Shown: positions 10,016 to 63,686 of the stretch, piece by piece | How positions within the stretch are numbered: the stretch's first letter is position 1 | How the letters are laid out: each line of letters opens with the position of its first letter | Origin: Steroidobacteraceae bacterium | Lineage (GTDB): Bacteria > Pseudomonadota > Gammaproteobacteria > Steroidobacterales > Steroidobacteraceae | Reading direction: 5' to 3' | Length of the DNA: 64,000 nt | Assembly: GCA_052326345.1 (NCBI GenBank) | Contig: JBKQOZ010000063.1 | Location: 153,507 to 217,506, forward strand | Position numbers and translations under genes: made by a program | The notes under the pieces: generated by a model | Databases searched by the model: none | The model's input: only the letters and a program-made list of their open reading frames with translations | What the model was told of the DNA's origin: nothing

Positions 10016-11671
10016 GTGTCGAGCGCCTCAGTGGGAAAATTCGATTATGTGATCGTCGGCGCGGGCTCGGCGGGTTGCGTGCTCGCCAACCGCCTCAGCG
10101 AGGATCCGGATGTGAAGGTTCTCGTTCTGGAGGCCGGCGGGGCGGCGACCGGGCTCTTCAAAGACATGCCCGTCGCGTTCCCCAAGTACGTGGTGCGCCG
10201 CGACCTGAATTGGAATTTCGAGAGTGATCCCGAACCGTATCTGAACGGCCGGCGCATCGAGATTCCGCGCGGCAAGGGCCTGGGTGGATCGTCCATGATC
10301 AACGGCATGGTCTACGCGCGGGGCCACCGCCACGACTACGACGATTGGGCGAAGCTCGGCCTCGCCGGCTGGGGCTACGCTGATGTACTGCCGTACTTTC
10401 GCAAATCCGAAAAAAGCTGGCTGGGGGAGAGCGACTATCACGGCGGCTCCGGCGAGCTGGAGATCTGCGTGCCGGCATCGAACATGCTGTACGAGGAAAT
10501 TCGCGCGGCGAGCGTTGCCGCGGGATTTCCCGCTACCGAGGACTATCACGGCGCGCAGTCGGAGGGATTTCAGCGCAACGAGATGACCGTGACGCGCGGG
10601 CGGCGCGGCAGCACCGCCCGGGTATTTCTCGAGCCCGCCATGCGCCGACCGAATCTCACCGTCGAAACCCATGCGCTGGCGAGCCGGGTCCGGTTCGAGG
10701 GCAGGCGCGCCGTCGGGGTCGACTATGTGCAGCGGGGCGCAGGTCGGGCGGCGGAGGCCGCGCGCGAGGTGATTCTCGCGGGCGGCGTATACGGCTCGGC
10801 ACAGCTGCTGCTGCTTTCCGGCATCGGACCCGCGGAGCAGTTGAACAAACACGGCATCAATACGCTCGTCGATCTGCCGGGGGTCGGCAAGAACCTGATC
10901 GAGCATCCATTCATGTTCGTCGGCTGGCGGATGCGGCCGGGCGCCTTTCGCAGTGAGTTGCGCATCGATCGGGCGACCGCCTGGGTGCTGCGCTGGGCGC
11001 TGCTCGGCACCGGCGTATTCGCGACCAACGGCGCGGCGGGCAATCTATTCATCCGAACCGAAGCGAGCCTCGACCGCCCCGACATGCAGTTCACCTGCAT
11101 GTCGGGCGAGGTAAGCGCGCGCGAGCTGTGGGTCCCGTTCATCGGCAAGAAGCCGACGCATTCGCTCGCAGTGGGTGTGTCCATGATCAGACAGGACAGC
11201 CGCGGCGAAGTGACCTTGCGCTCCGCCGACGCGAATGATCCGCCGCGCATCGTATTCAACTTGTTCAAGGAGCGCTCGGACGTCGAGCGGGCGATTCGCG
11301 GATTGAAGGCGATCCGCCGCGTGTATCAGCACGAACCGTTGAAGAATTTCACCGCGGGTGAAATTCTGCCCGGCGCTTCGGTCCGGACGGACGCCGAACT
11401 GGAGAAATTCGTGCGCGATACCGGAGCAATCACCCAGCATGCGGTCGGCACGTGCAAGATGGGAATCGATGCCGATGCCACGGCGGTGGTGGATGCGGCG
11501 CTGCGCGTGCGCGGCACCGAGTCCCTGCGGGTCATCGACGCCTCGGTCATGCCCAACGTGCCGGGCGGCAACACCAATGCGCCCGCCATCATGATCGCGG
11601 AGAAGGGCGCGGACTTGCTGCGCGGGCGATCCTTGCCGCGCGCCGACAATCGACCGGAGTACGCCTCATGA
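10016..11671 (+). CDS. GMC family FAD oxidoreductase (choline/alcohol dehydrogenase-like)
   Basis: It has FDYVIVGAGSAGCVLANRLSED, GKGLGGSSMINGMVY and the C-terminal motif HAVGTCKMG...VIDASVMP...GNTNAP. The start is uncertain (GTG 10016, GTG 10031 or ATG 9881). Confidence 0.85.
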   Translation: MSSASVGKFDYVIVGAGSAGCVLANRLSEDPDVKVLVLEAGGAATGLFKDMPVAFPKYVVRRDLNWNFESDPEPYLNGRRIEIPRGKGLGGSSMINGMVYARGHRHDYDDWAKLGLAGWGYADVLPYFRKSEKSWLGESDYHGGSGELEICVPASNMLYEEIRAASVAAGFPATEDYHGAQSEGFQRNEMTVTRGRRGSTARVFLEPAMRRPNLTVETHALASRVRFEGRRAVGVDYVQRGAGRAAEAAREVILAGGVYGSAQLLLLSGIGPAEQLNKHGINTLVDLPGVGKNLIEHPFMFVGWRMRPGAFRSELRIDRATAWVLRWALLGTGVFATNGAAGNLFIRTEASLDRPDMQFTCMSGEVSARELWVPFIGKKPTHSLAVGVSMIRQDSRGEVTLRSADANDPPRIVFNLFKERSDVERAIRGLKAIRRVYQHEPLKNFTAGEILPGASVRTDAELEKFVRDTGAITQHAVGTCKMGIDADATAVVDAALRVRGTESLRVIDASVMPNVPGGNTNAPAIMIAEKGADLLRGRSLPRADNRPEYAS

Positions 11672-12555
11672 AGGATTTGAGCGGCAAAGTGGCCTTCGTC
11701 ACCGGCGGCAGCAGCGGCATCGGGCTCGGCATCGTCAAGGTACTCGCCGAGGAGGGGATGAAGGTGGCGTTCAGCTATCGCCGTGAGGATCATCTGGAGC
11801 AGGCCATGGCGTATTTTCGCGCCCGCCCGCGGCTCCTGATCCATCCGATCAAGCTCGACGTCACCGACCGCGCCGGCCTCGCCGCCGCAAAGCGGGAAAT
11901 CGAGCGCGTGTACGGCGCGGTGCAGTTGCTCGTCAATAATGCCGGGTTCGGCATTCAGGGGCCCATGGAACTGGCTACGTACAGCGACTGGGATTGGATC
12001 ATGAGCGTCAACGTGGGCGGCGTGGTCAACGCGCTGGTCACCTTTTTGCCCGATATGCTTGCGCGCGGGCAGCAGGCCCACATCGTCAATGTGGCTTCGA
12101 TGGGCGGCATCGCCGCACTCGGATCGGTCGGGCTGTATACCACCACCAAGTTTGCAGTGGTGGGCCTGAGTGAGTCGCTGCGCACGGACATGATCGGCCG
12201 CAACGTCGGGGTGTCGGTCTATTGCCCGGGCACGGTCAAATCGAACATCGGCGAGGGCGGGGCGCTGCGCCCGGAGCAATTCAAGGACAGCGGCTACGCG
12301 CCGCCCGAACCGCCGCCTCCGGGGGTAGGCTCCTTCATGGATCAGGCGATGGAAGCGGTGCAGGCGGGGCGCTATGTGCTCGAGGGCATCAAGCGCAACC
12401 AGCTGTACATTCTCAGCCACCCCGAATTTCGCGATGTACTGCGCGCGCGCCACGCGAAAATCGAGTCCTCGATTCCCGACGAGCCCATTGACAAGGCGCG
12501 GGCCGAATCGGTTCGTTTCATCCTCTCCAATCCCATCTACAGCGAGGATGCCTGA
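11668..12555 (+). CDS. SDR with C-terminal extension, LigD/LigL/LigN (C-alpha dehydrogenase)-like
   Basis: ATG 11668 overlaps the GMC stop. Motifs include KVAFVTGGSSGIGLG, NNAG, YTTTKFAVVGL and GVSVYCPGTVKSNI. It is a paralog of the SDR at 42480-43376. Confidence 0.8.
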   Translation: MKDLSGKVAFVTGGSSGIGLGIVKVLAEEGMKVAFSYRREDHLEQAMAYFRARPRLLIHPIKLDVTDRAGLAAAKREIERVYGAVQLLVNNAGFGIQGPMELATYSDWDWIMSVNVGGVVNALVTFLPDMLARGQQAHIVNVASMGGIAALGSVGLYTTTKFAVVGLSESLRTDMIGRNVGVSVYCPGTVKSNIGEGGALRPEQFKDSGYAPPEPPPPGVGSFMDQAMEAVQAGRYVLEGIKRNQLYILSHPEFRDVLRARHAKIESSIPDEPIDKARAESVRFILSNPIYSEDA

Positions 12556-12605
12556 CGCCCGTTCCAGCGCAGCGGCAAGCGAGTCAGACCGCGCGGGTCG
12601 AGTCC

Positions 12606-13751
12606 GTGAATGCAGGTTGCCATCAATACCTGTTCGCATTATGCACCCGAGGCAATCCCCGATTCGCCGGCGCAAGTCGGGTAGACTCCTCGAGGCGTCC
12701 GAAAGCGAGGGTATCGGTCCTGCTGAGTTATCCACTCGAAGTTGAACCACAAGTCGGCGACGGCTCTGCGATCCTTATCGCACCGGGGGTCATGTGGCTG
12801 CGCATGCCGCTGTTCACCGCGCTGCCGTGGATCAATGTGTGGGCCATCGCCGAGCAGGACGGTTGGTCGATTGTGGACACGGGACTGCATTCTGCGAAGA
12901 CGATGGAGGCTTGGGACGCGGCGTTTGCCGGGCCGCTGCGAGGCGCCCCGGCGTTACGGGTGATAGTCACCCACATGCACCCCGATCATTGTGGTTTGGC
13001 CGGATGGCTGGCGGAGCGCTTCCAGATCAGACTCTGGATGACGCGCTTGGAATACCTTACCTGCCGGCTGATGGCGGCGGATACCGGCCGGGAGGCGCCG
13101 GCCGACGGCATCGAGTTCTACCGCGCGGCCGGCTGGGACAGTTCGGCAATTGAACATTATCGAGCGAAATTCGGCTCATTTGGCGAGCTGATTTTCCTTC
13201 TGCCCGCCTCCTATCGGCGCATCGAGGACGGCGATACGCTGACCATGGGCGCTCACGACTGGTCCGTGATCGTCGGCAACGGCCATTCTCCAGAGCATGC
13301 GTGTCTTTATTGTCCGGACTTGAAAATCTTGATTTCCGGCGACCAGGTGCTGCCGCGAATTTCCTCGAATGTGTCTGTGTACCCCCTGGAACCGGATGCC
13401 AATCCGCTGGCCGAGTGGCTGAGTTCGCTGACGAAGCTCAAAGCGCGCATTCCGAACGACGTGCTGGTGCTGCCGGCGCACAATAGCCCATTTCGCGGAC
13501 TGCACGAGCGCATCAGCGAGCTGACCGAATCGCATCAGCGCGGGCTCGAGCGTCTGGAAGGTCTGCTGACCGAGCCCAGGCGTGCCGTGGATGTGTTCGA
13601 AGCGCTGTTTTCCCGTCCGATCAGCAGCGGTCTGCTGGGAATGGCAACCGGCGAAGCAATAGCCCATCTGAACTATCTGACGCGAATGGGGCGCGCCGTG
13701 CGCGAAAGGGACGATCGCGGCGTGTGGTGGTGGCGCGGATCGGCCGGCTGA
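12606..13751 (+). CDS. MBL-fold metallo-hydrolase
   Basis: It carries the THMHPDHCG (HxHxDH) motif with downstream His/Asp ligands. The start is uncertain (GTG 12606 or ATG 12792). Confidence 0.7.
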   Translation: MNAGCHQYLFALCTRGNPRFAGASRVDSSRRPKARVSVLLSYPLEVEPQVGDGSAILIAPGVMWLRMPLFTALPWINVWAIAEQDGWSIVDTGLHSAKTMEAWDAAFAGPLRGAPALRVIVTHMHPDHCGLAGWLAERFQIRLWMTRLEYLTCRLMAADTGREAPADGIEFYRAAGWDSSAIEHYRAKFGSFGELIFLLPASYRRIEDGDTLTMGAHDWSVIVGNGHSPEHACLYCPDLKILISGDQVLPRISSNVSVYPLEPDANPLAEWLSSLTKLKARIPNDVLVLPAHNSPFRGLHERISELTESHQRGLERLEGLLTEPRRAVDVFEALFSRPISSGLLGMATGEAIAHLNYLTRMGRAVRERDDRGVWWWRGSAG

Positions 13752-13768: not shown

Positions 13769-14092
13769 CTACTCGACGATCTCGTCGATCTGGATCTGCG
13801 GCATCGAGTTGGTGAAGTTCGGAACATCCGCGATGAGCGTGGCGGCGTGCTTCGCCGCCGCCTCGTCGAAGGCACGCTGCGAGCCGATCCAGATGTTGAT
13901 GACGGCCACGTACGGCACCGGCTCGCCGTCCGGGGTCGCGGCGCCGCGGCGCAGCTCGAGCCTGGCGATGCCCTCGCCGTAGAGCCGCTTGATGAGAGCG
14001 GCGTGGTGCTCGCGATAGTAGTCGAAGTCGAATGTCACGCCGGGCGTGTTGGCATACAGCACGGTGATGCAGCGGCGGGCGGTTGCGGTCAT
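13769..14092 (-). CDS. EthD family (TIGR02118-like) small protein
   Basis: The 107-aa protein reads [27 protein letters not shown]...[19 protein letters not shown], which matches my recollection of the EthD/TIGR02118 consensus. Its ATG overlaps the upstream oxygenase stop (ATGA). Confidence 0.6.
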
Positions 14093-15552
14093 GGTGTTTC
14101 CTTGAGGCGGCTCGCGTCCGCCCAGTTGCCGTGCAGGGCGGAGCGCAGACGGAACGGCAGTTTGGCCCTGGCGAGCGGGCCCTCGGCAATGCGCCTGGCA
14201 TCGAAGATGCCGAGGTCGGAGTAGTTCGTCACCACGTTGTCGAGCACGGCGAGGAGGTAGCCGTCGCCTTCCGCCGCGCCCGGCGTGCGCGGCACGAAAC
14301 AGGGCTCCTGAACGATGGTCTGCGATCCGGCCCACCAGGTCGTCTGTTCATTCACGGTAAAATCGATGTGTGCGAGCGAATTCATGATCATCCCCGAGGC
14401 GCGGCCCCCCGGGCCGTCGAACGGCTTTTGAACATCGGATACGAGCAGCCAGCCGTGGCGCTGCGGCTGGGTGGCATAACGGTCGTCGATCCTCGGAAAT
14501 TCGCCGAACAGTTCGGTCAGGCGCTGCGACTTTTCAAAGGCGTCGCCCGAGGAGGCCATGTCGACCGTCCAGCGGGTGAGAAAGCTCATCGCCTCGAGCG
14601 GGTTGAACGGCGCACCGCGCACGTCGGGAAAAAAGGGAAACATATTGTTCTTTGCGACGGGCGTGTCGAAATAAACGCGGGTGCCGTCGTTGAAGGCGTT
14701 CATGACGTGGCTGGCGAACAAAGTCGGCGACTTGAACCAGCGCATGGCGCGCGCATCGCCGTGGCGCGGCAGCACGCCGAGATAGACCGGCAGCGAGGTG
14801 TCGAACCCGAAGTGCGGCAATCCCGCCTTCAGGCGCTCCCAGGAGCTCACGATCGGTACGACGTGAAACACGGCGTAGTCCTGGGTGAGGCCGAAATCGT
14901 GCATCATGCAGTAGTACGGCGCTTCGAACCACGTCTCCAGGAGCAGCTCTCCTGTGGGGCTGATCTCCATGTAGTGGCAGTCGCGCGTCAACAAGCCCTT
15001 GGCCGCATAGCCGAACGCGCACATATTGCCGGTGAGCGGATCGATCTTCGGATGGGCGCAGAAGGTCTGCCCGTGCATCTTGCCGCCGAAGTCGGTATAG
15101 CCCTCGGTATCGAGCGTCAGAGGGTCCATGAGCAGGGCGGGACTGTCCTCCTTGAGGGCGAACAATTTTCCCGCGTGCACGAGGACATTGGTGTTGGCGG
15201 TGCCGCGAATCTTGCCGCGCACGGATTCCTCGTCGGTGAGCGGATTGCGATATGCGCCGAACAGTGAGCGCTCGGCGCGGCGCTCCAGCTTCCACTTGTC
15301 GGTCTGCGCGTAGCGCTGCCGGAAGTCGATCTTGCCGCCGCGGAAGTGAAACAGGGCGATCATTCCGTCGCCGTTGAAAAACTGATCGTTCTCGAACAGC
15401 GGCGGGAACTGCGCATCCGGATGCACCCGGTGATAAGTCCCATTGAGCTGCGCGGGCAATTCGCCCTCGATCTCGACATCGTGAATGTCGCCCTCGAAGC
15501 GCACCGGGCGCAAGGTGCCGGTGAAGCCGCGTGTGTTAGGAAAGTGGGCCAT
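14089..15552 (-). CDS. Carotenoid-cleavage-oxygenase family enzyme, lignostilbene-alpha,beta-dioxygenase-like
   Basis: The 487-aa protein starts [39 protein letters not shown] and contains [25 protein letters not shown] and conserved His positions typical of RPE65/LSD enzymes. Confidence 0.85.
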
Positions 15553-15623: not shown

Positions 15624-16601
15624 CTAGCCGTGCACATCGTGGCGGCAGCCGCCGCCGCAGCCGGCATCGCGGGGATCCTGCCGGCTCTGCGTGAGCCGAA
15701 CCACGAGCTCGCGCAGCCACGCGTGAGCCGGATCCGATTCGTTGCGCTTATGCCACAGCAGGATTTCGTGCATCGTGGGGGTCTCGACCGGCAACGGAAA
15801 GGTCTTGATCGGCATCGTCGCGCTGACCATATGCGCCACCCGCTCGGGCAGCGTGGCGATCATCCGGGTGCCGCGCAGCACCAGCGGCAGATGCAGCAGA
15901 CTCGGCACCGTGATGTGTACCTGCAGGTCGATGTCCAGCAAGCGGCGAACCAGTTCCTGGGCGGATGCCGTATAGCCATTGGGCCGTCCGAACACATGCG
16001 GAAGCGAAAAATACTGCTCGGCGGTGATGTTGTCGCCGACGGTGGGATGGTCGCGGTCGACGGCGCAGATCCAGCGTACCGGTCGCAGCCGCACGCTGCG
16101 CAGGGTGTCGGGAAAGGCGCGCGCCTCGAACAGCCGCAGGCTGTCGAGACACAGGCACAGGTCGACATCGCCGTATTCGAGCCGGCTCAGCGCCGTCTGC
16201 GTCACCAGCTCGATGTTGATGCGGATTCCGGGGGCCTCGCTCGAGACGCGCTCCAGCAGTGCCGGCAGCAGGTCGGGCACCGCTTCCTCGGACATGATCA
16301 GGGTGAACTCGCGCTGCGTCGTCGCCGCCGTAAAGGTCGGCTGGGTGCCCAGGGTCGCCTGGATCAGCAGCAGCGCCTCGCGCACCGGCTCGACCAGTGA
16401 TTGGCCGCGCGGCGACAGCTCCATGTCCCGCCCGACTCGGATCAGCAGCGGATCGCCGAAATAGTCCCGCAGCCGGTGCAGCGCTGCGCTCATCGCGGGC
16501 TGAGACACGAAGACCTTCTCGGCGGCACGCGTGATGTTCTTCTCGCGCAGCAGCGTGTCGAGGGCAATCAACAGGTTGAGATCGAAGCGATGAAACTGCA
16601 T
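15624..16601 (-). CDS. LysR family transcriptional regulator (NodD-like)
   Basis: The N-terminal HTH reads MQFHRFDLNLLIALDTLLREKNITRAAEKVFVSQPAMSAALHRLR. It is about 325 aa and is divergent from the operon starting at 16746. Confidence 0.85.
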   Translation of the reverse strand: MQFHRFDLNLLIALDTLLREKNITRAAEKVFVSQPAMSAALHRLRDYFGDPLLIRVGRDMELSPRGQSLVEPVREALLLIQATLGTQPTFTAATTQREFTLIMSEEAVPDLLPALLERVSSEAPGIRINIELVTQTALSRLEYGDVDLCLCLDSLRLFEARAFPDTLRSVRLRPVRWICAVDRDHPTVGDNITAEQYFSLPHVFGRPNGYTASAQELVRRLLDIDLQVHITVPSLLHLPLVLRGTRMIATLPERVAHMVSATMPIKTFPLPVETPTMHEILLWHKRNESDPAHAWLRELVVRLTQSRQDPRDAGCGGGCRHDVHG

Positions 16602-16745: not shown

Positions 16746-17495
16746 ATGCTTGAACTCTACCATGCCGAGCCGCTGGCGAATTCGATGAAGTGCCTGCTGT
16801 GTTTGAAGGAGAAGGGACTCGAATTCGTGAGCCATTACGTCGATCTTTTGCGCTTCGAGCAGCACAGCCCGGAATTCCTCAAGCTCAACCCCAATGGACA
16901 GGTTCCCGTGCTGGTGCACGACGGCGCGGTGATCACCGAGTCGACGGTGATCAACGAGTATCTCGAGGATGTGTTCCCGGACGTGCCGCTGCGGCCGAAT
17001 AATCCGGTGGAGCGCGCGCGGATGCGCATCTGGAGCAAGTTCGTGGACGAGTACTTCTGCCCGGCGCTCAGCATGTGGGGCTGGCATTTAATGGTGCGGC
17101 GGGTCGCGAAAAGCCTGGGCGAGAACGAACTCGACAAGGTGCTCGAGCGCATCCCGTTGAAGGAGCAGCGCGACAAGTGGGCCACCATCGCCGGCGAATC
17201 CTTCACCGAGGCGCAGCTGGCCGATTCGAAGCGCAAGCTCTGCGTGTCGATCGAACGCATGGAGAAGATCCTGGCGAATTCCCGATGGCTCGCGGGTTCC
17301 TCGTACTCGCTCGCGGACGTGAACAGCTACTCGATGGTCGCCGGCGTGCCGCGCATGTTTTCCGACATCATGAATCCGGGGGCGACGCCGCTCGCATGCG
17401 CGTGGCTCGACGCCATGAATGCACGGCCGGCCGTCCGGGCGGCGCTCGCGATGCCCAACAAAGTGCCCGAAGCCCTGCGAACCTTCGGCGGCTGA
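16746..17495 (+). CDS. Glutathione S-transferase, LigF-type beta-etherase-like
   Basis: By eye it aligns along its whole length with my recollection of Sphingobium SYK-6 LigF. Shared segments include LELY..EP.ANS.K, FEQHSPEF.K.NP.GQVP.L.HDG.VITESTVI.EYLEDVFP, LRP..P..RA.MR.W.K.VDEYFC and WLAG..YSLAD. Confidence 0.8.
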   Translation: MLELYHAEPLANSMKCLLCLKEKGLEFVSHYVDLLRFEQHSPEFLKLNPNGQVPVLVHDGAVITESTVINEYLEDVFPDVPLRPNNPVERARMRIWSKFVDEYFCPALSMWGWHLMVRRVAKSLGENELDKVLERIPLKEQRDKWATIAGESFTEAQLADSKRKLCVSIERMEKILANSRWLAGSSYSLADVNSYSMVAGVPRMFSDIMNPGATPLACAWLDAMNARPAVRAALAMPNKVPEALRTFGG

Positions 17496-27194: not shown

Positions 27195-27199
27195 AAGCC

Positions 27200-27802: not shown

Positions 27803-27817
27803 CGCCGCCCGCGCGCC

Positions 27818-49015: not shown

Positions 49016-49045
49016 GAGGGATCCTCCGTTGTTCGGTGGCAATCG

Positions 49046-53956: not shown

Positions 53957-54245
53957 TGACTCCACTCCCCCGTTTATTAGCGGGATTTCATCGTTATGCT
54001 GACGGCCGTCTGACCAGCCTGTCGCTTGTTGTGGAGATAGTTATACGAGACAATCATTTCGAGCAGCCAATTCTTTTGACTTATAGGTGATATAGACCAA
54101 CCTGAGTTGTTGCCGCCCGACAACAACCCTGCTGGATGCTCGATGCGGCCAAATCGATGTCACTGTGCGTCGAGTTTTCTGCGCCGCCTGCGGCAACATC
54201 GCAGTCGTGGGGACAACATAAGAGCCGCGACGCAGAGAGGGAGCC

Positions 54246-54722
54246 GTGAAAATGACGCCGCTCAGCGGCTACGTTGGCTATGCATTGCGCCGGGCCCAGG
54301 GCGCTATTTTCGCGGACTTCAACCAGACGCTCGCGCAGCTAAATCTGCGGCCAGGCCAATTCGCCGTTCTGTTGCTCATCGATCAGAATCCGGGGACCAG
54401 CCAGTCGAGCGTTTCGGCGGCGCTCGGTATCCAAAAGGCGAATTTTGTCGCAACCATCGCGGACCTGGAGCACCGGGGGCTGGTGCGGCGCCGCAAGTCC
54501 GACACCGATGGACGCACCTACTCGCTCAGCCTCACTCCCCGGGGCCGCTCGGTGCTGCAGCATGCCGCGGAGCTGCAATCACAGCACGAGGCGCGCGTCA
54601 TCGCGCACATCGGTCCCGACGGGCGGCTGCAACTGCTCAATTTGCTCGAACGTCTGGCGCGGCTGCCGGGTCCGCCGCCGCTTGACGGGGCCCCCGTTCG
54701 CGGCGCGCGCGCGCGACAGTGA
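54246..54722 (+). CDS. MarR family transcriptional regulator
   Basis: The winged HTH reads LRPGQFAVLLLIDQNPGTSQSSVSAALGIQKANFVATIADLEHRGLVRRRKSDTDGRTYSLSLTPRG. The start is GTG 54246 or ATG 54252. Confidence 0.8.
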   Translation: MKMTPLSGYVGYALRRAQGAIFADFNQTLAQLNLRPGQFAVLLLIDQNPGTSQSSVSAALGIQKANFVATIADLEHRGLVRRRKSDTDGRTYSLSLTPRGRSVLQHAAELQSQHEARVIAHIGPDGRLQLLNLLERLARLPGPPPLDGAPVRGARARQ

Positions 54723-56111: not shown

Positions 56112-56897
56112 TCACCCCCAGCGCGACGCTTCGATACCCGGCACGAACTGCCGCTCCGGCTGGGGCGTTCTCGCCGTGCGCAGCGCCTCGCGCACGGAAT
56201 CGCGCGCCGCGATCCGTCCGAGATATTCAAGGATACGCGGGGTCGACTGGGCATTGACGGATGCCGCCGCCAGATCCGGAAGCACGCAGAGCATCGGGTA
56301 TGCGTCGATGTCGGCAATCGAGAATGCAGGGCCGGCGAGCCACGGCCCAGCGCGAAGTGCGGCCTCGATGCGCGCCAGCGGCGCGCCGAGCCGCTCGTGC
56401 ACCGACTTCAAATAATCCGGCGTGTAGCTGCCGTTGCGCAGCGCGAGCCACCCGGTGCGCCGCTCGATGGGTTCGATCGCGGCGATGCGCCGGTCAACCA
56501 CTTCAGGATCCAGGGCCGCGAGGTGCGGCTGCAGGTATTTCGCGGCTCCCAGCACCGGCACGATCGAACCGAGCTGTGCTCCCAGATATTGACCCCAGGC
56601 GCGGGCGCGGTAGGCATCGTAGGGATCACCGGGCACCAGCGAATCTCCGGGCAGAGCCTCCGAGATGTACTCCAGCATGAAGAATGAGCTCGAGATGAGC
56701 GTCCCGTCATGCAGCAGCAGCGGCCCTTCACGCTCGAGCTGCAGACTGGATTCGAGGTCGCTCGGAAAGCCGTCCGCAAACTGCTCGAAGTTCGCGGCAT
56801 CGAAATATCGTAGGGTGTAGGGCGCATGCTTTTCAGCCAGCGCGATCAGCGGCTTTAAGAAAAGCGCGTTCGGCTCGGAGGTGTACAGTTCAAGCAC
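56112..56897 (-). CDS. Divergent LigF-family GST-like protein
   Basis: The N-terminus MLELYTSEPNALFLKPLIALAEK parallels the LigF-like N-termini, but Leu replaces the Ser of the ANS motif. GTG 56897 overlaps the upstream GST stop by 8 nt. WLAGPAFSIADI is conserved. Confidence 0.7.
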   Translation of the reverse strand: MLELYTSEPNALFLKPLIALAEKHAPYTLRYFDAANFEQFADGFPSDLESSLQLEREGPLLLHDGTLISSSFFMLEYISEALPGDSLVPGDPYDAYRARAWGQYLGAQLGSIVPVLGAAKYLQPHLAALDPEVVDRRIAAIEPIERRTGWLALRNGSYTPDYLKSVHERLGAPLARIEAALRAGPWLAGPAFSIADIDAYPMLCVLPDLAAASVNAQSTPRILEYLGRIAARDSVREALRTARTPQPERQFVPGIEASRWG

Positions 56898-57657
56898 TGG
56901 GCGTGCGCTCCAATATCTTGATCCGTGCGGCCATTTGAGTACGCCCCTTGGCCCAGGTTTCGCGCGCCGCGGGGCGCTCGTAGATCCGGCGCAGCCATTC
57001 CATGATATGCGGTGTCTTGGAGTCGTTGCAGTGTTCGGGCTGCGACAGCGGCAGTGCGTATCCCAGATTGAAGCCGTTGATGTCGCCGAGCGAGTATCGA
57101 TCGCCGGCGATCCAGGCCGAGCGGCTGAGATGGCGCTCCAGGGCTGCCGTGGCGAACAGCACGCGACGCTTCGACTCGGCGAGCTCCTCGGGCAAGAACT
57201 CGTTGAACAGAGCCTTGCGCCACGCGATGCGTCGCGACTCGAGCGGTATCCGATCGATCGCGGCGCGAAGCTCTTCGGGCGGGCGATGCCGTGCGGCGGG
57301 TCCGATGAAAATGCTCCAGCCGATCATGCTGAGCGACGGCGCGAAGTAGGCATCGAAGAAGCGCATCCACCAGCGCATGCGCCAGCGTGCCTTCGCATCC
57401 GCGGGCTTGAGCGGCGGCCCCGGAAACGCCTCGTCGATGTATTCCATCATCGGCGTCGATTCGGTGAGCACTCGCGAGCCATGCACCATGGCCGGAATCG
57501 TTCCATCCGGGTTGACGGCAAGATATGCGGGTTTGTGCTGGTCGAACTGCAGCAAATCGAGGTAGCGGCTTTCGTATGCCACGCCCTTCTCGGCAAGCGT
57601 CAGCATCGGCTTGCCGGAATTGGCGTTCGGTTCCCAGTGATAGAGGATGACGGCCAT
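56890..57657 (-). CDS. Glutathione S-transferase, LigF-type beta-etherase-like
   Basis: It has ILYHWEPNANSGKPMLTLAEKGV, FDQHKP.YL.VNPDGTIPAMVH..RVLTESTPMMEYIDEAFP, LKP...K.RW.MR.W and WIAGDRYSLGDI. Confidence 0.8.
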   Translation of the reverse strand: MAVILYHWEPNANSGKPMLTLAEKGVAYESRYLDLLQFDQHKPAYLAVNPDGTIPAMVHGSRVLTESTPMMEYIDEAFPGPPLKPADAKARWRMRWWMRFFDAYFAPSLSMIGWSIFIGPAARHRPPEELRAAIDRIPLESRRIAWRKALFNEFLPEELAESKRRVLFATAALERHLSRSAWIAGDRYSLGDINGFNLGYALPLSQPEHCNDSKTPHIMEWLRRIYERPAARETWAKGRTQMAARIKILERTPSA

Positions 57658-57797
57658 ACCGCCCGCTAGGCTGCACGCCGTGCGCGGCGCCGGCTCGACG
57701 GTCGGGGAAACGCAACGCGATGAGGCGCGAACACACCCGGCGCGCAGGGCTGATTGTTATGTACTATAATGAACTTTTCGCGGCGCCCGGCGGCCCC

Positions 57798-58271
57798 ATG
57801 AAGCTCAAGGCGAGACAAACCCACGCGGCATCCCTCGGTGACCTGGAGCAGCAGGTGGGCTACATGCTGCGGCGCGCGCAGCTTGCCGTGTTCGCGGACT
57901 TCATCGCCGGCCAGCGCGGCCCGGCGGCGCGGCCGGGTCAGTTTTCCGTGCTCGCCGTGGTCGGCCGCAATCCGGGCATCAGCCAATCGCAGCTGTGCGC
58001 AGCCCTCGGCATCAAGCGCGCCAACCTGGTGGCCGTCATCGATCGCTTCGAGTCGCTCGACCTTGTGCGCCGCGAGACATCCTCGACCGACCGTCGCGCC
58101 AACCGCCTGCAGCTCACCGGCGCCGGACAGCGCGCGCTGCAGAATGCGCTCGCGGCCCAGGCCGAGCACGAAGCGCGCATCACCGGATTGTTGGGCGCCG
58201 CCGGCAGGCAAGCACTGCTCAAGCACCTGGCGAAGCTGTGCGAACTGTCACCCGCTAGGAGGTTTCCATGA
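57798..58271 (+). CDS. MarR family transcriptional regulator (CouR-like context)
   Basis: The winged HTH reads ARPGQFSVLAVVGRNPGISQSQLCAALGIKRANLVAVIDRFESLDLVRRETSSTDRRANRLQLTGAG. Its stop overlaps the next ATG (ATGA). Confidence 0.8.
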   Translation: MKLKARQTHAASLGDLEQQVGYMLRRAQLAVFADFIAGQRGPAARPGQFSVLAVVGRNPGISQSQLCAALGIKRANLVAVIDRFESLDLVRRETSSTDRRANRLQLTGAGQRALQNALAAQAEHEARITGLLGAAGRQALLKHLAKLCELSPARRFP

Positions 58272-60400
58272 GTTCCCGAATCGTGACACTTGCGCTGGAC
58301 GGCGAAATTGCCGTCATCAGCGTCAACAACCCGCCGGTCAATACGATCAATGCCGCCGCCCGACAGGGCTTGTTCGCGGCGCTTGCGGATATCCGCTCGC
58401 GCGCCGGAATCTCGGCTGTGGTTCTGGTCTGCGAAGGCAGCACGTTCTTCTCTGGGGCGGACATCGGCGAATTCGCGGGGCCTCCGAAGGAGGCCGAATA
58501 TCGCGATCTTTTCCGCCAGCTGGAGCAGCTGCCGGTCCCGGTGGTCGCCGGGATGCACGGTGTGGCCATGGGCGGCGGCCTCGAGATCGCGCTCGCCTGC
58601 CATTACCGCGTGGCGGTGCCGGGCGCGCGCTTCGGACTTCCCGAGGTCACGCTCGGCATCATCCCCGGCGCCGGCGGAACTCAGCGCATGCCGCGGTTGA
58701 TCGGCGTCGAGAAGACTCTCGATCTGATACTCGCGGCGCGTCCGGTGGACGTGGCGACGGCTATTGCGCTCGGATTCGTCGATGCCGAGATCTCGGGCGA
58801 CGTGCGCAGCGGGACGATCGAATTCGCGCGGGCGCTGGTCCGCGACGCTGCCGGCCCGCGCCCCACGGCGCAGCGCCGCGTCGATCCGCAGACGGCGACG
58901 CCGGCGATCATCGAACGCCTGACGCAGCAGGCGAAAAGCCAATACCCTAACCGGCAGGCGGCCCTGACCGCCATCCAGGCGGTGAGCGCCTCCGCGACGC
59001 TGCCCTTCGAGGAGGGGCTGCTCTACGAGACCGAGCTCGCCAACGGCGCGAAGGCGACGGTTGAATCTAAGGCGCTGATACACGTGTTCTTCGCGGAGCG
59101 CGATACGCGCAAGGTGCCGGGGTTGCCTGCTGAGGCAAAGGCGCGCCCCATAGCGAGCGGCGGCGTGGTGGGCGCCGGCACCATGGGCGGCGGAATCGCA
59201 ATCTGCTTCGCCAACGCAAACCTGCCGGTCACCCTGCTCGACAGCACTCAAGAGGCGCTGGACCGGGGGTTGGCCGTGATCGGCTCGACCTACGACTCGA
59301 TGGTGAAGCGCGGAAGGCTGACGGCGGCGGACAAGGATCGGCGGATGGGGTTGATCCGCGGCACGCTCGACTATTCGGAGCTGGCGCAGGCCGATGTACT
59401 GATCGAGGCGGTATTCGAGAGCCTCGACCTCAAGCGCAAGATCTTCAAGACGCTGGACGAGGTGGCGCGGCCGGGCGCCGTGCTCGCTACGAATACCTCG
59501 ACCCTGGATGTCACCGAGATCGCGGCGGCGACGCGCCGTCCGCAAGACGTCATCGGGCTGCACTTCTTCTCGCCTGCGAACGTGATGCCCCTGCTCGAGG
59601 TGGTGCGCACCGACAGGACCGATCCCGCCGTCATCCGCACCGCGCTCGATCTCGCCAAGGCACTGCGCAAGACACCGGTGGTGGCGCGGGTCTGCTATGG
59701 CTTCATCGGCAATCGCATGATGGAGGGGTATGCGCGCGAGGCGCAGCGCATGGTCCTCGAGGGCGCCACGCCTCGCGAGGTCGACGACGCTCTCGAAGCG
59801 TGGGGCATGGCCATGGGCATCCTGGCGGTGTTCGACATGGCGGGAATCGAGGTGGGGGTCAACGTGCATCGCGCGAACGCGGACCGGTATCCGCCCGACC
59901 CGGCCTATTATCAGGCGGATTTTGCGCTGCACGCGGCCGGTCGCCTCGGCCAAAAGAACGGCAAGGGCTACTATCGATACGTGGCCGGGGATCGCACGCG
60001 TCACGACGATCCGGAAGCCCTCGACATCCTGCGCCGCACCGCGCAGCGCCTGAACATTCCGCAGCGACAGCACAGTCCGGAGGAGATCGTGGAGCGCTGC
60101 CTGTATCCGCTGATCAACGAGGGCATGCGCATCCTCGAGGAGGGGGTGGCCTCGCGCGCCGCCGATATCGATGTCGTGTGGTGCGCCGGCTACGGCTTTC
60201 CGCGCTACCGCGGCGGGCCGCTGTTCTATGCGGACACGATCGGTCTGAAGACCGTGCGCGACGGTATGCTCAAATACCGCGATCTGTTCGGTCCCATGCA
60301 CTGGCAGAGCGCACCGCTGCTCGACCGTCTGGCCGCCGAAGGGAGTACGCTCGAGCGTTGGCAAGCGGCGCGCAACCGCGCGCAAGGGGTGTCGAAATGA
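58268..60400 (+). CDS. Bifunctional enoyl-CoA hydratase / 3-hydroxyacyl-CoA dehydrogenase (FadB/FadJ-like)
   Basis: The N-terminal crotonase fold reads FFSGADIGEF...GGGLEIALACHYR. The central NAD domain reads VVGAGTMGGGIA, followed by the 3HCDH C-terminal domains. An AGGAGG Shine-Dalgarno is present. Confidence 0.9.
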   Translation: MSSRIVTLALDGEIAVISVNNPPVNTINAAARQGLFAALADIRSRAGISAVVLVCEGSTFFSGADIGEFAGPPKEAEYRDLFRQLEQLPVPVVAGMHGVAMGGGLEIALACHYRVAVPGARFGLPEVTLGIIPGAGGTQRMPRLIGVEKTLDLILAARPVDVATAIALGFVDAEISGDVRSGTIEFARALVRDAAGPRPTAQRRVDPQTATPAIIERLTQQAKSQYPNRQAALTAIQAVSASATLPFEEGLLYETELANGAKATVESKALIHVFFAERDTRKVPGLPAEAKARPIASGGVVGAGTMGGGIAICFANANLPVTLLDSTQEALDRGLAVIGSTYDSMVKRGRLTAADKDRRMGLIRGTLDYSELAQADVLIEAVFESLDLKRKIFKTLDEVARPGAVLATNTSTLDVTEIAAATRRPQDVIGLHFFSPANVMPLLEVVRTDRTDPAVIRTALDLAKALRKTPVVARVCYGFIGNRMMEGYAREAQRMVLEGATPREVDDALEAWGMAMGILAVFDMAGIEVGVNVHRANADRYPPDPAYYQADFALHAAGRLGQKNGKGYYRYVAGDRTRHDDPEALDILRRTAQRLNIPQRQHSPEEIVERCLYPLINEGMRILEEGVASRAADIDVVWCAGYGFPRYRGGPLFYADTIGLKTVRDGMLKYRDLFGPMHWQSAPLLDRLAAEGSTLERWQAARNRAQGVSK

Positions 60401-61263
60401 ACGTGAAGGATCTGATCGCGATCGACGTGCATACCCATGCGGAAGTCTCCTGCCGGCAGCCGGCGGATGAGGTGTGGCAGGCGTACGAGGATGCGGCGTC
60501 GAAGTATTTCAAGGCCGGCAAACGCCCCACCATTGCCGAGACGATCGCCTACTACCGGGAACGCAAGATCGGCCTCGTCATGTTCACGGTGGACTCGGAA
60601 CACGAACTGGGCTCGCGGCGCATCCCGAACGAGGAGGTGTGCGACGCGGCCCGTGAGAACAGCGATCTCATGATCGCCTTCGCGAGCATCGACCCGCACA
60701 AGGGCAAGATGGGCGTGCGCGAGGCCCGCCGCCTGATCAAGGAAGGCACGGTCAAGGGCTTCAAGTTCCATCCCACGGTCCAGGGCTTTTTCCCGAACGA
60801 CCGAATGGCCTATGGGTTGTACGAAGTGATCGCCGAGCACAAGCTGCCGGCCATATTCCACAGCGGGCATTCGGGCATCGGCACCGGGATGCCCGGCGGG
60901 GGCGGCGTGCGCTTGAAGTACTCGAATCCGATCCACCTCGATGATGTGGCGGCGGACTTCCCGGACATGAACATCATCATCGCGCACCCGTCGTGGCCCT
61001 GGCAGGACGAGGCCCTGTCGGTGTGCCTGCACAAGCCGAACGTGTACATCGATTTGTCCGGTTGGTCGCCGAAGTACTTTCCGCCGCAGCTGGTGCAATA
61101 CGCGAATACTCAGCTCAAGCGCAAGATGCTGTTCGGCTCGGATTTCCCGCTGATCGCACCCGACCGGTGGATCAAGGACTTCCGCGAGGCGGGATTCAGG
61201 CCCGAGGTTCACGAGCTGATCCTCAAGGACAACGCCGTCGCGCTGCTCGGTCTGGCGGGCTGA
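60397..61263 (+). CDS. Amidohydrolase superfamily protein (CouO-like candidate aryl-beta-ketoacyl-CoA hydrolase)
   Basis: The metal-binding HxH is near the N-terminus (IDVHTHAE), with later HSGHSG, IIAHPSWPW and GSDFP motifs. Its ATG overlaps the FadB-like stop (ATGA). Confidence 0.8.
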   Translation: MNVKDLIAIDVHTHAEVSCRQPADEVWQAYEDAASKYFKAGKRPTIAETIAYYRERKIGLVMFTVDSEHELGSRRIPNEEVCDAARENSDLMIAFASIDPHKGKMGVREARRLIKEGTVKGFKFHPTVQGFFPNDRMAYGLYEVIAEHKLPAIFHSGHSGIGTGMPGGGGVRLKYSNPIHLDDVAADFPDMNIIIAHPSWPWQDEALSVCLHKPNVYIDLSGWSPKYFPPQLVQYANTQLKRKMLFGSDFPLIAPDRWIKDFREAGFRPEVHELILKDNAVALLGLAG

Positions 61264-61335: not shown

Positions 61336-62787
<1,452 letters not shown>

Positions 62788-62789
62788 GA

Positions 62790-63686
62790 TTGAACGCAGG
62801 AGAAGAGGAGGCCGGCGCCGCAGGCGTCGAGGCGGATCTTCATTACCTGGTGCCCGGTTCGCGCATCAACCGGCGGTACGTGGCGCCGGGCGCGGAGATG
62901 AATACCGGTCACTATGCGCCGCAGCGCGTGAAAATTCGCAATGCGCGGCCATTTCAGCACCGCCTGGGGTTCGACAGCCACGGATTCGTGCTCGTCCCGC
63001 ACTCGAGCCGCATCGCCGATTTCACCGACCGCGCGCAGGTCGATACGAACTACGCCGCCGAAGTGAGCGACGTGGTCAGGCGCGTGACCGGCGCCTCGCT
63101 CGTCTTGCCGATGGGCTGGATGATCCGCTCGTCCGGCGAGTTGCCGGCGGCGGCGCAGCAGCCGGCCGGCTACACCCATCAGGGCGGCACCCAGCCTCCG
63201 GCGAGCGACGTCCATGTGGACATGGCGCCGGACCGTGCGCAGCGCTTCGCGAAGATGCTCTACGAGAAGCACGTCCCCGGCGGCGCGGGGTTCCGGCGCT
63301 TCGTCGCCACGAGCTGCTGGCGCGCGTTCTCCGCGCCGCCGCAGGATTGGCCGCTCGCCGTCTGCGACGGCAGCAGCGTCGACCCGGCCGAGGGGGTCAA
63401 GAACACGATGGTCATCGTCGATGCGCTGCCTGGGAGCGACGCGATTCCCGATGAGCTGCCCGGGGAGGATGGCGTGCCGGCCGCCTCCGTGTTTCACTTC
63501 AGCCCGAAGCATCGCTGGTGGTATTACCCGAACATGACGCGCGACGAGGTGCTGCTGCTGAAGTTTCACGATTCCGACCATTCGACGGCGTGGCGCACGC
63601 CGCACACCTCGTTCCACGATCCGACCTACCCCGACGCCCGCATCCGCCGCAGCATCGAGTTTCGCACCGTGGCGTACTTCGAGTAG
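62790..63686 (+). CDS. CmcJ/NvfI-family oxidoreductase-like protein
   Basis: The ~298-aa protein has the pattern L.Y........Y...... I.NAR......L...GF.LV.H.S...DF.D........Y..E........G, ...HVD, and a C-terminal ..PH.SF.DP. This matches my recollection of this family. The TTG 62790 start lies 2 nt after the ligM stop and is uncertain. Confidence 0.55.
   Translation: MNAGEEEAGAAGVEADLHYLVPGSRINRRYVAPGAEMNTGHYAPQRVKIRNARPFQHRLGFDSHGFVLVPHSSRIADFTDRAQVDTNYAAEVSDVVRRVTGASLVLPMGWMIRSSGELPAAAQQPAGYTHQGGTQPPASDVHVDMAPDRAQRFAKMLYEKHVPGGAGFRRFVATSCWRAFSAPPQDWPLAVCDGSSVDPAEGVKNTMVIVDALPGSDAIPDELPGEDGVPAASVFHFSPKHRWWYYPNMTRDEVLLLKFHDSDHSTAWRTPHTSFHDPTYPDARIRRSIEFRTVAYFE

Follow-up and report, generated by a model that had tools for sequence, protein, structure and literature searches.

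A putative lignin-dimer catabolic supercluster in chromosomal DNA of a Steroidobacteraceae bacterium

Introduction

Among the linkages of lignin, the beta-aryl ether bond is the most frequent. The glutathione-dependent pathway for its cleavage was elucidated in sphingomonads, as were the pathways for beta-5 dimers and stilbenes. Here we analyze a stretch of 64,000 nt (the window) from contig JBKQOZ010000063.1 of the Steroidobacteraceae assembly GCA_052326345.1, which we consider likely to be native Steroidobacteraceae chromosomal DNA carrying a loosely organized supercluster for the upper catabolism of lignin dimers, from about 5 kb to its end. An earlier note, made from the letters of the sequence alone, had recognized here a near-complete sphingomonad-type gene set for funnelling beta-O-4 dimers, stilbenes and vanillate, a proposal that homology and gene context now support. 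We infer every catalytic function discussed below from these two kinds of evidence.

Results

Gene content of the window

Open reading frames (ORFs) were called by third-position GC and then scanned against Pfam, the PDB (phmmer) and the NCBIfam equivalog models; positions are given with + or - for the strand. All the ORFs claimed in the earlier note were present where it had placed them and, by Pfam, in the families it had named. The Pfam inventory comprises two classical short-chain dehydrogenases/reductases (SDRs), five ORFs with a glutathione S-transferase (GST) fold, three GMC oxidoreductases and five aldehyde dehydrogenases (ALDHs), together with RPE65/carotenoid-oxygenase, Amidohydrolase_2 and GcvT-fold proteins and an AMP-binding ligase with an ACAS_N domain. 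So many specific matches within 54 kb are far beyond chance. The window also encodes regulators of the LysR, AraC, MarR (two) and PadR families and four transporters of the major facilitator superfamily (MFS).

Candidate C-alpha dehydrogenases and a LigF-like GST

The two SDRs (SDR1, 11668-12555, +; SDR2, 42480-43376, +) resemble C-alpha dehydrogenases of the LigD/L/N/O type. In the PDB searches, SDR1 matched LigO, LigL and LigD with 255, 211 and 189 bits, compared to 207 bits for the unnamed SDR 3IOY and 132 bits for the next unrelated SDR. SDR2 scored 258 bits with 3IOY, 256 with LigO, 216 with LigD and 196 with LigL, and the next SDR that is neither a Lig enzyme nor 3IOY gave 188 bits. Leaving 3IOY apart, both proteins are nearer to the characterized Lig dehydrogenases than to other SDRs, and LigO, LigL and LigD are among the top PDB matches of both, in agreement with their earlier assignment. 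Their Pfam adh_short scores are 157 and 176 bits, respectively, and each has cofactor and catalytic motifs of the TGxxxGxG and YxxxK classes (TGGSSGIG and YTTTK in SDR1, TGGGSGVG and YSASK in SDR2).

The GST encoded at 16746-17495 (+) is a candidate beta-etherase of the LigF family; its score with LigF (PDB 4XT0) is 213 bits vs. 68 for the next GST, which bears out the LigF-type label it had been given. It is 46% identical to LigF of Sphingobium sp. SYK-6 and 49-51% identical to the LigF1-type genes from a pair of sphingomonad megaplasmids; these genes in turn share 64-67% identity with SYK-6 LigF. LigF-type proteins have been delimited by an identity of at least about 39% to characterized LigF homologues (Kontur 2019), and the values of 46-51% lie above this limit. 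The active-site pair is kept as Asn12-Ser13, with 'EPLANSMK' aligned to 'GPGANSLK' of LigF (Asn13/Ser14). No DesC-like alpha/beta-hydrolase gene adjoins the LigF-like gene.

Judged by coordinates, the LigF-like gene heads a tight operon of eight genes, encoding in order the LigF-like GST, a MetE-like protein, ALDH1, GMC2, DUF3237a, GMC3, MFS1 and the CoA ligase, and diverging from the gene for a LysR regulator (15624-16601, -; Pfam HTH_1 and LysR_substrate), which public assemblies annotate with 325 aa. ALDH1 (18610-20112, +; Pfam Aldedh, 566 bits) matches no NCBIfam equivalog at cut-off. Directly after LigF comes the MetE-like gene (17508-18605, +), whose single-domain product belongs to the cobalamin-independent methionine synthase family (Pfam Meth_synt_2; PRK06520, 448 bits; PDB 1YPX, 362 bits); homologues flank the ligase in five metagenome loci (L095, L115, L117, L118 and L120). 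A role for this protein in methyl transfer or demethylation is only a guess.

Two tandem GSTs resemble the BaeA/BaeB pair

In BaeAB, two LigF-related GSTs form a heterodimer that cleaves the beta(R) ether; the gene baeA directly precedes baeB, in most cases with an overlap, and the catalytic Asn14 of BaeA is absent in BaeB (PMC6369299). Two further GST genes of the window follow one another on the minus strand, overlapping by 8 nt. The upstream gene (56890-57657, -) encodes a BaeA-like protein, the candidate catalytic subunit of a beta(R)-etherase, with 152 bits to LigF in the PDB. The downstream gene (56112-56897, -) encodes a divergent BaeB-like protein, the candidate non-catalytic partner, in which Pfam recognizes GST_C and no GST_N and whose score with LigF is 77 bits.

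As proxies for NaBaeA and NaBaeB we took the megaplasmid genes in the BaeA and BaeB positions from Novosphingobium sp. RL4 and Sphingobium sp. V4. The BaeA-like protein is 62-65% identical (317-327 bits) to the BaeA-position proteins of RL4 and V4, compared to 38% for SYK-6 LigF, and keeps the pair Asn13-Ser14. BaeA homologues have been defined by >50% identity, >200 bits and the residues Asn14/Ser15, and BaeB homologues by >50% identity to NaBaeB; measured against the RL4 and V4 proxies, the BaeA-like protein falls within the BaeA definition. The BaeB-like protein has Leu12-Phe13 at the Asn-Ser positions of LigF and BaeA, and has thus lost the catalytic Asn. Together with its Steroidobacteraceae homologues it shares a five-residue insertion with sphingomonad BaeB, as well as the motif 'E(G/R)EGP(V/L)L' ('EREGPLL' in the window), where LigF and BaeA have 'NPxGxxP', and in a neighbour-joining tree the BaeB-like proteins group with sphingomonad BaeB (76% bootstrap).

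We read the tandem GSTs as a BaeA plus a strongly diverged BaeB, for which a heterodimer and beta(R) specificity are predicted. The earlier note had called both LigF-type; their relationship to LigF holds, but identity, gene order and motifs make them a BaeA/BaeB-type pair and not further LigF proteins. Taken together, the SDRs fall with LigD, LigL and LigO and the GSTs within the LigF/BaeA/BaeB group, not outside the Lig clades. LigE and LigG were absent from the PDB matches of all five GST ORFs in the window, and the three LigF-family GSTs scanned with the NCBIfam beta-etherase model reached at best 28.5 bits vs. a cut-off of 440. Since there is no LigE/LigP in the window, the BaeAB-type pair would supply the beta(R)-etherase.

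The likeness to BaeAB of Novosphingobium aromaticivorans thus extends to tandem, overlapping LigF-related genes, a catalytic upstream subunit with Asn-Ser and a partner lacking the Asn, and the absence of LigE has a parallel in Sphingobium sp. YG1. Differences are nevertheless evident. The window partner is 27-28% identical to sphingomonad BaeB, vs. 52-78% among the homologues in PMC6369299; it has Leu-Phe where the two sphingomonad BaeB proteins compared have Pro-Ser and where NaBaeB reportedly replaces the Asn by Ala and retains Ser14; and the genes overlap by 8 nt rather than 1-4 nt. One gammaproteobacterial soil metagenome-assembled genome (MAG; 13_2_20CM_66_19) with BaeAB homologues was already present in Table S1 of that work (PMC6369299).

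A short Nu-class GST as candidate glutathione lyase

The Nu-class GST encoded at 41591-42262 (-) is the candidate glutathione lyase. Its top PDB matches are GSTs of the YfcG-like and YghU-like kinds: it scores about 310 bits with the YfcG-like Nu-class structures 6TUM and 4ECI, 170 bits with E. coli YfcG (EcYfcG) and 134 bits with NaGSTNu (5UUN), and has Thr9-Pro-Asn11 in the motif 'TPNG' (residues 9-12). By its length of 223 aa and these scores, the protein is nearer to the short YfcG-like GSTs than to NaGSTNu and YghU, the architecture of which comprises about 290 aa with analogues of Tyr166 and Tyr224. It is thus YfcG-like, as had been noted, and of the short type rather than the NaGSTNu/YghU type. 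With NaGSTNu/LigQ and GST3 of Novosphingobium sp. MBES04 it has in common the Nu-class fold and the Thr-x-Asn thiol-activating motif, and in relatives of the window and two sphingomonad replicons it stands next to etherase genes; it differs in being far closer to 6TUM/4ECI than to NaGSTNu.

E. coli YfcG, which has no analogues of Tyr166 and Tyr224, is a roughly 10,000-fold poorer lyase than NaGSTNu for the glutathione conjugate GS-HPV (PMC5892560), and Nu-class membership alone is therefore weak evidence for a lyase role. Gene context makes a stronger case. A homologue 54% identical to the window protein divergently adjoins the LigF1-type gene in both sphingomonad replicons. To survey the lineage itself, the BaeA-like protein was used as a marker against one genome per GTDB species; of 388 relatives the best 80 were used, and the counts of gammaproteobacterial loci given here and below refer to these 80 species-level genomes. 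A Nu GST homologue lies no more than 10 kb from BaeA in 26 of them, and in one (L062) it stands between BaeAB and LigF. This context suggests a lyase role more strongly than class membership does.

An acetoacetate-CoA-ligase-like enzyme and ALDH3

The last gene of the LigF operon (25200-27194, +) encodes an AMP-forming ligase of 664 aa that resembles acetoacetate-CoA ligase (TIGR01217, 818 bits vs. 521; NF002937, 927 vs. 639). It had been called a beta-keto-acid-type CoA ligase, and NCBIfam makes it more precisely an acetoacetate-CoA-ligase equivalog. A separate metagenome scan with the window ligase gave 80 loci, which we split at 60% ligase identity. A homologue of a cluster gene occurred in the flank of 21 of the 39 loci with a ligase at or above 60%, and in only 1 of the 41 below it (Fisher p = 1e-7). 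MFS1, encoded just upstream (23911-25200, +; Pfam MFS_1), adjoins the ligase in 8 metagenome loci.

The commonest neighbour of the ligase was ALDH3 (36233-37684, -; Pfam Aldedh, 485 bits), with 71-88% identity in 12 metagenome loci and direct adjacency in at least 4 of them (L096, L098, L109 and L114). The order in L093 is ligase, ALDH3, Nu GST, AraC, MarR, MFS, BaeB. In the window, the ligase and ALDH3 are separated by a block of about 9 kb (27.2-36.2 kb). L094 has the gene order of the window without this block, and the block is likewise missing between the ligase and ALDH3 in L096. Since related contigs have the two genes with no such block between them, it appears to have been inserted locally; with the rest of the window it correlates slightly less well in tetranucleotide composition (0.89-0.91). 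ALDH2 (27818-29383, -) and MFS2 (29935-31686, -), both assigned by Pfam, lie in this block (27200-36210), which also holds a Kup K+ transporter, the PadR regulator and a DNA-glycosylase-like ORF.

All five ALDHs announced in the earlier note are present by Pfam. None reaches an NCBIfam equivalog cut-off, and their identities to F199 DesV are 34-42%. For ALDH3, the absence of an equivalog match and the 34% identity to F199 DesV neither support nor exclude the label of vanillin dehydrogenase.

In SYK-6, vceA and vceB together span 1.5 kb; VceA is an acetyl-CoA-dependent converting enzyme that is non-essential in that strain, and VceB is a thioesterase. F199, an organism in which no fate has yet been assigned to vanilloyl acetaldehyde and the corresponding acid, lacks homologues of both (PMC11837543). 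The window has no homologue of VceA or VceB either, and the ligase cannot be equated with VceA, being a 664-aa AMP-forming acetoacetate-CoA ligase equivalog rather than an acetyl-CoA-dependent converting enzyme.

Vanilloyl acetic acid is the aryl analogue of acetoacetate, and this analogy makes an ALDH paired with a beta-keto-acid ligase a reasonable candidate for the missing steps. ALDH3 is thus a candidate vanilloyl-acetaldehyde dehydrogenase and the ligase a candidate vanilloyl-acetate-CoA ligase. The aldehyde would be oxidized to the beta-keto acid, which would be activated with ATP to the beta-ketoacyl-CoA and split by thiolysis into vanilloyl-CoA and acetyl-CoA. We propose only tentatively, and with more doubt than confidence, that the ligase subclade and ALDH3 together provide the missing steps by which vanilloyl acetaldehyde and vanilloyl acetic acid are turned into vanillate, in place of VceA/VceB. 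We found no paper linking an acetoacetate-CoA-ligase-like enzyme to the vanilloyl-acetate step. If the proposal is true, Steroidobacteraceae would have a complete beta-etherase variant that evolved independently in three respects, namely the combination of BaeA with a strongly diverged partner, a YfcG-type lyase and ligase-dependent removal of the side chain.

GMC, DUF3237, stilbene and LigW genes point to a beta-5 module

Three GMC oxidoreductases were recognized by Pfam: GMC1 (10016-11671, +; GMC_oxred_N/C), the stop codon of which overlaps the start of SDR1 by 4 nt, and GMC2 (20109-21767, +) and GMC3 (22290-23918, +), which flank DUF3237a (21793-22293, +; Pfam) in the LigF operon. HpvY of N. 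aromaticivorans is an oxidase of hydroxypropiovanillone (HPV; PMC11837543). Identities to F199 HpvY (SARO_RS19130, on pNL2) are 44%, 42% and 47% for GMC1, GMC2 and GMC3, respectively, and 41-45% (GMC1, 41%) to the uncharacterized pNL2 paralogue SARO_RS19275. Of the earlier description as HpvZ-class GMC enzymes, the family is thus correct and the class unconfirmed, the window proteins being no closer to HpvY than to its paralogue.

PhcF, PhcG and PinX are DUF3237 decarboxylases and PhcC, PhcD and PinY are GMC enzymes (PMC12607616); the latter three convert the side-chain alcohol to the acid before decarboxylation to the stilbene (PMC12607616; PMC12997858). A second DUF3237 gene, DUF3237b (48539-49042, -), lies beside MFS3 (49046-50458, -), both assigned by Pfam, and a LigW-type decarboxylase (50455-51501, -). 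The decarboxylase scores 477 bits with LigW of N. aromaticivorans and 475 with SYK-6 LigW2 in the PDB, compared to 157 bits for the next distinct decarboxylase, gamma-resorcylate decarboxylase. Next to it is ALDH5, a FerD-like protein by our reading (51535-52980, -; Pfam). ALDH5 and the LigW-type protein are 64% and 59% identical, respectively, to the products of an adjacent gene pair in Sphingobium sp. V4, and a lignostilbene dioxygenase (LSD) gene lies near that pair. In SYK-6, ferD, for 5-formylferulate dehydrogenase, and ligW2 have neighbouring locus tags (PMC12997858 Table 1), and 5-carboxyferulate is also decarboxylated by LigW/LigW2 (PMC12997858).

The LigW-type assignment made in the earlier note therefore stands, but the FerD-like neighbour points to beta-5 compounds rather than to the biphenyl branch it had attached to the gene; no LigXYZ-type biphenyl genes were recognized among the window ORFs scanned. 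The LSD-like gene it had named is likewise confirmed. This lignostilbene alpha,beta-dioxygenase (14089-15552, -; Pfam RPE65, 434 bits) is LsdA-like, with 810 bits to LsdA (6OJR) and 659 to NOV1 in the PDB, and is 62% identical to an LSD of Sphingobium sp. V4.

GMC2-DUF3237a-GMC3, DUF3237b, the LSD, the FerD-like ALDH and LigW together form a credible candidate for a beta-5/stilbene module of the SYK-6 type. The likeness to the SYK-6 beta-5 pathway lies in the GMC-DUF3237-GMC block, the second DUF3237 gene, the LSD and an ALDH-LigW pair resembling ferD-ligW2; for the Phc and FerD proteins it is one of family and arrangement, rather than of measured identity to PhcC/D/F/G or FerD. A difference is that the window LSD is closest to LsdA of strain TMY1009, whereas the SYK-6 pathway uses LsdD. 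In a published survey, the N. aromaticivorans-type beta-5 set (PcfL, FerD, LigW and LsdD) was almost exclusive to Sphingomonadales (PMC11323797), and homologues of PhcC/D-PhcF/G have been tallied in a published survey among Alphaproteobacteria only.

Beside the DUF3237b-LigW module (47481-48463) are genes for a protein with a GFA (glutathione-dependent formaldehyde-activating) domain and for a SnoaL/NTF2-like protein of 129 aa. We considered the latter (48074-48463) as a deformylase of the LdpA/PcfL type, which have an NTF2 fold; it had no PDB sequence match at E <= 0.01 and no such function is claimed.

A LigM equivalog, and no ring-cleavage genes

The gene at 61387-62787 (+) encodes LigM, the tetrahydrofolate-dependent O-demethylase of vanillate and 3-O-methylgallate. 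As anticipated in the earlier note, it passes the NCBIfam LigM equivalog (NF047885, 807 bits vs. 580), and it scores 732 bits with LigM in the PDB; its 663 bits with the DesA model are below the cut-off of 800. No LigAB or PcaGH-type domain was found in any window ORF scanned, consistent with the absence of ring-cleavage genes reported before.

After LigM comes a gene for a CmcJ/NvfI-family protein resembling 2-oxoglutarate oxygenases (62829-63686, +; NF041278, 268 bits vs. 80; PDB 7EUS, 92 bits). Homologues with 48-49% identity occur in sphingomonad lig clusters (L086, L091 and L092), beside Nu GST and ALDH genes, and a copy with 35% identity adjoins LigM; the sites in these loci are 8470-9207 and 22059-22865 in L086, 5748-6554 in L091 and 11088-11936 in L092. 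The pathway descriptions consulted make no mention of this protein.

The catabolic genes probably sit on a Steroidobacteraceae backbone

The left end of the window carries flagellar genes, all on the plus strand. From their Pfam domains we read them as the C-terminus of FlhF, an SRP54-type GTPase (2-490, +; SRP54 GTPase), a FleN/FlhG-like ATPase of the ParA/MinD type (339-1370, +; ParA/CbiA), a FliA-like sigma factor (1277-2149, +; Sigma70 r2/r3/r4), a MotA/MotC-like protein (2153-2896, +; MotA_ExbB) and a MotB/MotD-like protein (2933-3937, +; MotB_plug and OmpA), in accordance with the flhF-fleN-fliA-motCD order described before.

The 80 best relatives of the BaeA-like protein are 74-96% identical to it, and all 80 come from MAGs, with no sphingomonad among them. 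By their titles nearly all of these are Steroidobacteraceae, Gammaproteobacteria or Proteobacteria, with one each of Pseudomonadota, Nevskiaceae and Alcaligenaceae; Steroidobacteraceae belong to the Steroidobacterales within the Gammaproteobacteria in the NCBI taxonomy. The contigs that carry several of these loci measure 0.9-2.5 Mb, and one locus belongs to a complete chromosome record of 4.27 Mb. A protein identical to the LigF-like GST is also encoded in the NCBI MAG contig GCA_052326715.1 and in several sequencing-run assemblies. The sample names of related MAGs include soil, bog and palsa.

GC is even across the window; a stretch at 44-48 kb is lower, at about 0.60. The tetranucleotide correlation of the flagellar flank (1-10 kb) is 0.89-0.95 with the catabolic segments and 0.87-0.94 with the gammaproteobacterial loci, whereas for sphingomonad loci of similar GC it is 0.80-0.86. 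Between the segments of the window and sphingomonad loci the values are 0.78-0.89. Window proteins are 43-67% identical to their sphingomonad counterparts. No integrase, transposase or other mobile-element gene was recognized among the window ORFs scanned, and ARAGORN and Rfam yielded no credible tRNA in the window. The one ARAGORN call, a tRNA-Arg(ACG) of 87 nt at 40026-40112, lies inside the PQQ dehydrogenase gene described below with no Rfam tRNA at the gathering threshold, and is probably a false positive.

Since flank and cluster are alike in composition, the relatives are so similar, mobile genes were not recognized and identity to sphingomonads is only 43-67%, these comparisons indicate that the catabolic cluster is native and old in the Steroidobacteraceae lineage, and neither a recent transfer nor an assembly chimera. 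The non-sphingomonad backbone suspected in the earlier note is thereby upheld: flank and cluster have the same composition, and the close relatives of the BaeA-like protein all come from Steroidobacteraceae or other gammaproteobacterial-type MAGs.

The gene set recurs in varied arrangements among relatives

The BaeA/BaeB-like pair is kept in 76 of the 80 gammaproteobacterial loci. Within 10 kb on either side of BaeA, a LigF-like gene is found in 21 of the 80 and a LigD-type SDR gene in 24, and BaeA, BaeB, LigF, the LigD-type SDR and the Nu GST all occur together in 12, within about 8 kb in L062. The gene families that accompany BaeAB and LigF in the window also do so on the two sphingomonad megaplasmids. 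These modules would appear to have been shuffled between genomes while staying near each other, the pattern expected of functionally linked genes.

The order in the closest relatives is FadB-like, MarR, BaeA, BaeB, MFS, MarR, AraC, ALDH5, LigW, MFS, DUF3237. In the window, the corresponding genes encode an AraC regulator (52991-53965, -), MarR1 (54246-54722, +) and MFS4 (54719-56083, +) on one side of the tandem GSTs, and MarR2 (57720-58271, +) and a FadB/FadJ-like enoyl-CoA hydratase/3-hydroxyacyl-CoA dehydrogenase (58268-60400, +; below the NCBIfam equivalog cut-offs) on the other, all by Pfam. AraC-MarR1-MFS4 is syntenic in the close relatives L006, L008 and L009, and MarR2 and the FadB/FadJ-like gene are also syntenic in relatives.

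Other genes of the window

Upstream of GMC1 are two Zn-dependent alcohol dehydrogenase (Zn-ADH) genes (5238-6356, +; 8770-9924, -; Pfam) and, between them, a benzoylformate-decarboxylase equivalog (7208-8779, -; NF005485, 779 bits vs. a cut-off of 493). The same trio is found beside LigM, LysR and ligase genes in metagenome locus L108. The aromatic cluster thus probably starts near 5.2 kb, upstream of position 10016, where the earlier note had begun it.

A metallo-beta-lactamase-fold hydrolase is encoded after GMC1-SDR1 (12606-13751, +; Pfam Lactamase_B and B_lactamase-like_C; PDB 6AO1, 270 bits); its 270-bit PDB matches are structural-genomics proteins that have no assigned function. ALDH4 (37739-39391, +; Pfam) is followed by a PQQ-dependent quinohaemoprotein alcohol dehydrogenase with a fused cytochrome c domain (39256-41544, +; TIGR03075, 623 bits), the true start of each being probably later. 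In two sphingomonad replicons, BaeAB is followed downstream by a homologue of the PQQ enzyme with 54-55% identity (L086, 13774-15765, immediately so; L087, 15251-17236), and the gene is no more than 10 kb from BaeA in 19 of the 80 gammaproteobacterial loci. We rejected an identification with PinVW, which is a flavocytochrome of the cresol-dehydrogenase type (PMC12997858).

ORFs 27182-27766 and 43429-44127 and several small ORFs had no family match, and the translation of 27182-27766 looks non-coding. About 2 kb at 43400-45400 hold no convincing ORF or Pfam match; they may have a regulatory function or be the remains of a gene. Two short ORFs with no Pfam match, located between the genes for the FadB-like protein and LigM, lie end to end with a stop codon between them (60552-61049, -; third-position GC 0.88-0.90) and may represent a disrupted small gene.

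Discussion

The genes of the window can be arranged into a pathway in which beta-O-4 dimers would first be oxidized at C-alpha by the two LigD/L/N/O-type SDRs. The beta(S) ether would then be cut by the LigF-like GST and the beta(R) ether by the BaeA/BaeB-like heterodimer, the partner of which lacks the catalytic Asn, and the short YfcG-like Nu GST would take off the glutathione to yield HPV. The side chain would next be converted by a GMC oxidase, by ALDH3 or ALDH1 and by the acetoacetate-CoA-ligase-like enzyme, in the direction of vanilloyl-CoA and vanillate. LigM would turn vanillate into protocatechuate, for ring cleavage by enzymes encoded outside the window. A second module, comprising GMC2-DUF3237a-GMC3, DUF3237b, the LsdA-like dioxygenase, the FerD-like ALDH and LigW, would serve phenylcoumarans and stilbenes (beta-5, beta-1).

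The closest precedent is the beta-etherase pathway of SYK-6, which likewise has LigD/L/N/O-type SDRs, a LigF-family GST, a Nu GST, GMC enzymes, ALDHs and LigM, and the proteins of which are the best solved-structure matches of their window counterparts. The window differs from it in lacking a homologue of LigE/LigP, LigG or VceA/VceB, in the short form of its Nu GST, in the moderate identities and in the gammaproteobacterial host.

Several observations weigh against this reading. The LigF-like protein is only 46% identical to SYK-6 LigF, and its 46-51% to LigF1-type proteins is below the >60% seen within LigF1; it may belong to either the LigF1 or the LigF2/DesD subclade. At 27-28% identity to sphingomonad BaeB-position proteins, the BaeB-like protein falls short of the >50% used by Kontur for BaeB homologues, and the Nu GST belongs with the YfcG-like proteins, of which the E. 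coli member is so poor a lyase. GMC1-3 are not assignable to HpvZ/HpvY or to PhcC/D, and no thiolase, thioesterase or guaiacol demethylase was found in the window. Lastly, the taxonomic placement is based on MAG titles and composition rather than on a marker-gene phylogeny of the contig.

Some of these points would fit a different explanation, in which the Lig paralogues act on other substrates, for example the LigF-family proteins as DesD-like isomerases and the Nu GST as a general disulfide reductase, and the window is a funnel for stilbenes, phenylcoumarans and monomers that performs no beta-ether cleavage. The identity of the window protein to LigF is 46%, NaLigF2 is now listed as DesD, with a role in syringate catabolism (PMC12997858 Table 1), and an Agrobacterium LigE acts on beta-5 dimers (PMC11497285); the poor lyase activity of EcYfcG and the great divergence of the BaeB-like protein point the same way. 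We nonetheless consider this explanation unlikely, as the SDRs, the LigF-like GST, the BaeAB-like pair and the Nu GST are repeatedly co-localized in varied arrangements, which is hard to explain without a common substrate. Furthermore, the 62-65% identity of the BaeA-like protein to its proxies is comparable to that between NaBaeA and the enzymes of PP1Y and S. xenophagum, which are active (70-74%), the catalytic Asn and Ser are kept, and the LigF-like gene has no alpha/beta-hydrolase gene beside it that would provide a DesC partner.

It is also conceivable that the etherases function without feeding growth, HPV-type monomers being end products or signals to which the GMC, ALDH and ligase genes are unrelated. 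Novosphingobium sp. MBES04 provides a precedent, in that it accumulates phenylpropanones without using them (PMC10866074), and the window has no thiolase, thioesterase, ring-cleavage or VceA/VceB genes. We regard this as very unlikely, given that the LigF-like gene heads one operon with ALDH, GMC, MFS and ligase genes, that LigM is present, and that the ligase-ALDH3 pair recurs beside BaeB, Nu GST, LigM and LigW on other contigs. A related Steroidobacteraceae MAG was moreover 13C-enriched from labelled lignin, and encodes a LigM-like enzyme and protocatechuate meta-cleavage (PMC9296663). Least credible of all is a recent island from a sphingomonad, or a chimeric or mis-binned contig joining flagellar genes to sphingomonad DNA: the pathway has otherwise been described almost only in Sphingomonadales (PMC11323797; PMC12997858) and the window stems from metagenome assemblies, but sphingomonad orthologues reach an identity of only 43-67%, the marker gene has 74-96% identity among 80 gammaproteobacterial MAGs that include Mb-scale contigs and a complete chromosome record, flank and cluster share GC and a tetranucleotide signature distinct from that of the sphingomonad loci, and neither an integrase or transposase nor a credible tRNA was recognized.

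The chemistry and the enzyme families of a native Steroidobacteraceae supercluster, which remains the reading we prefer, are already known from sphingomonad pathways, and the pathway chemistry is unchanged. What is new is the lineage of the host and how broadly the genes are conserved there, along with the combination of beta-O-4 and beta-5 modules outside Sphingomonadales. The predicted variants are also new: the BaeB is diverged, the lyase candidate is a Nu-class protein of the short type, and an acetoacetate-CoA-ligase-like enzyme would replace VceAB. In the full-text literature we found no description of an etherase pathway in Steroidobacter or its family, and a review from 2026 still presents the catabolism of dimers as, in essence, a matter of sphingomonads (PMC12997858).

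For a specialist the finding is no great surprise, and its value lies in ecologically relevant enzyme candidates that can be tested. If the gene set operates, it would offer a diverged panel of enzymes for lignin valorization, in which BaeA has an unusual partner and which also includes a short lyase of the Nu class and additional GMC/DUF3237 pairs, and a concrete candidate for the still missing vanilloyl-acetate step. Steroidobacteraceae would then be added to the probable lignin-dimer consumers that take part in the carbon cycle of soils. Globally, our data suggest that this family is an overlooked consumer of lignin breakdown products.

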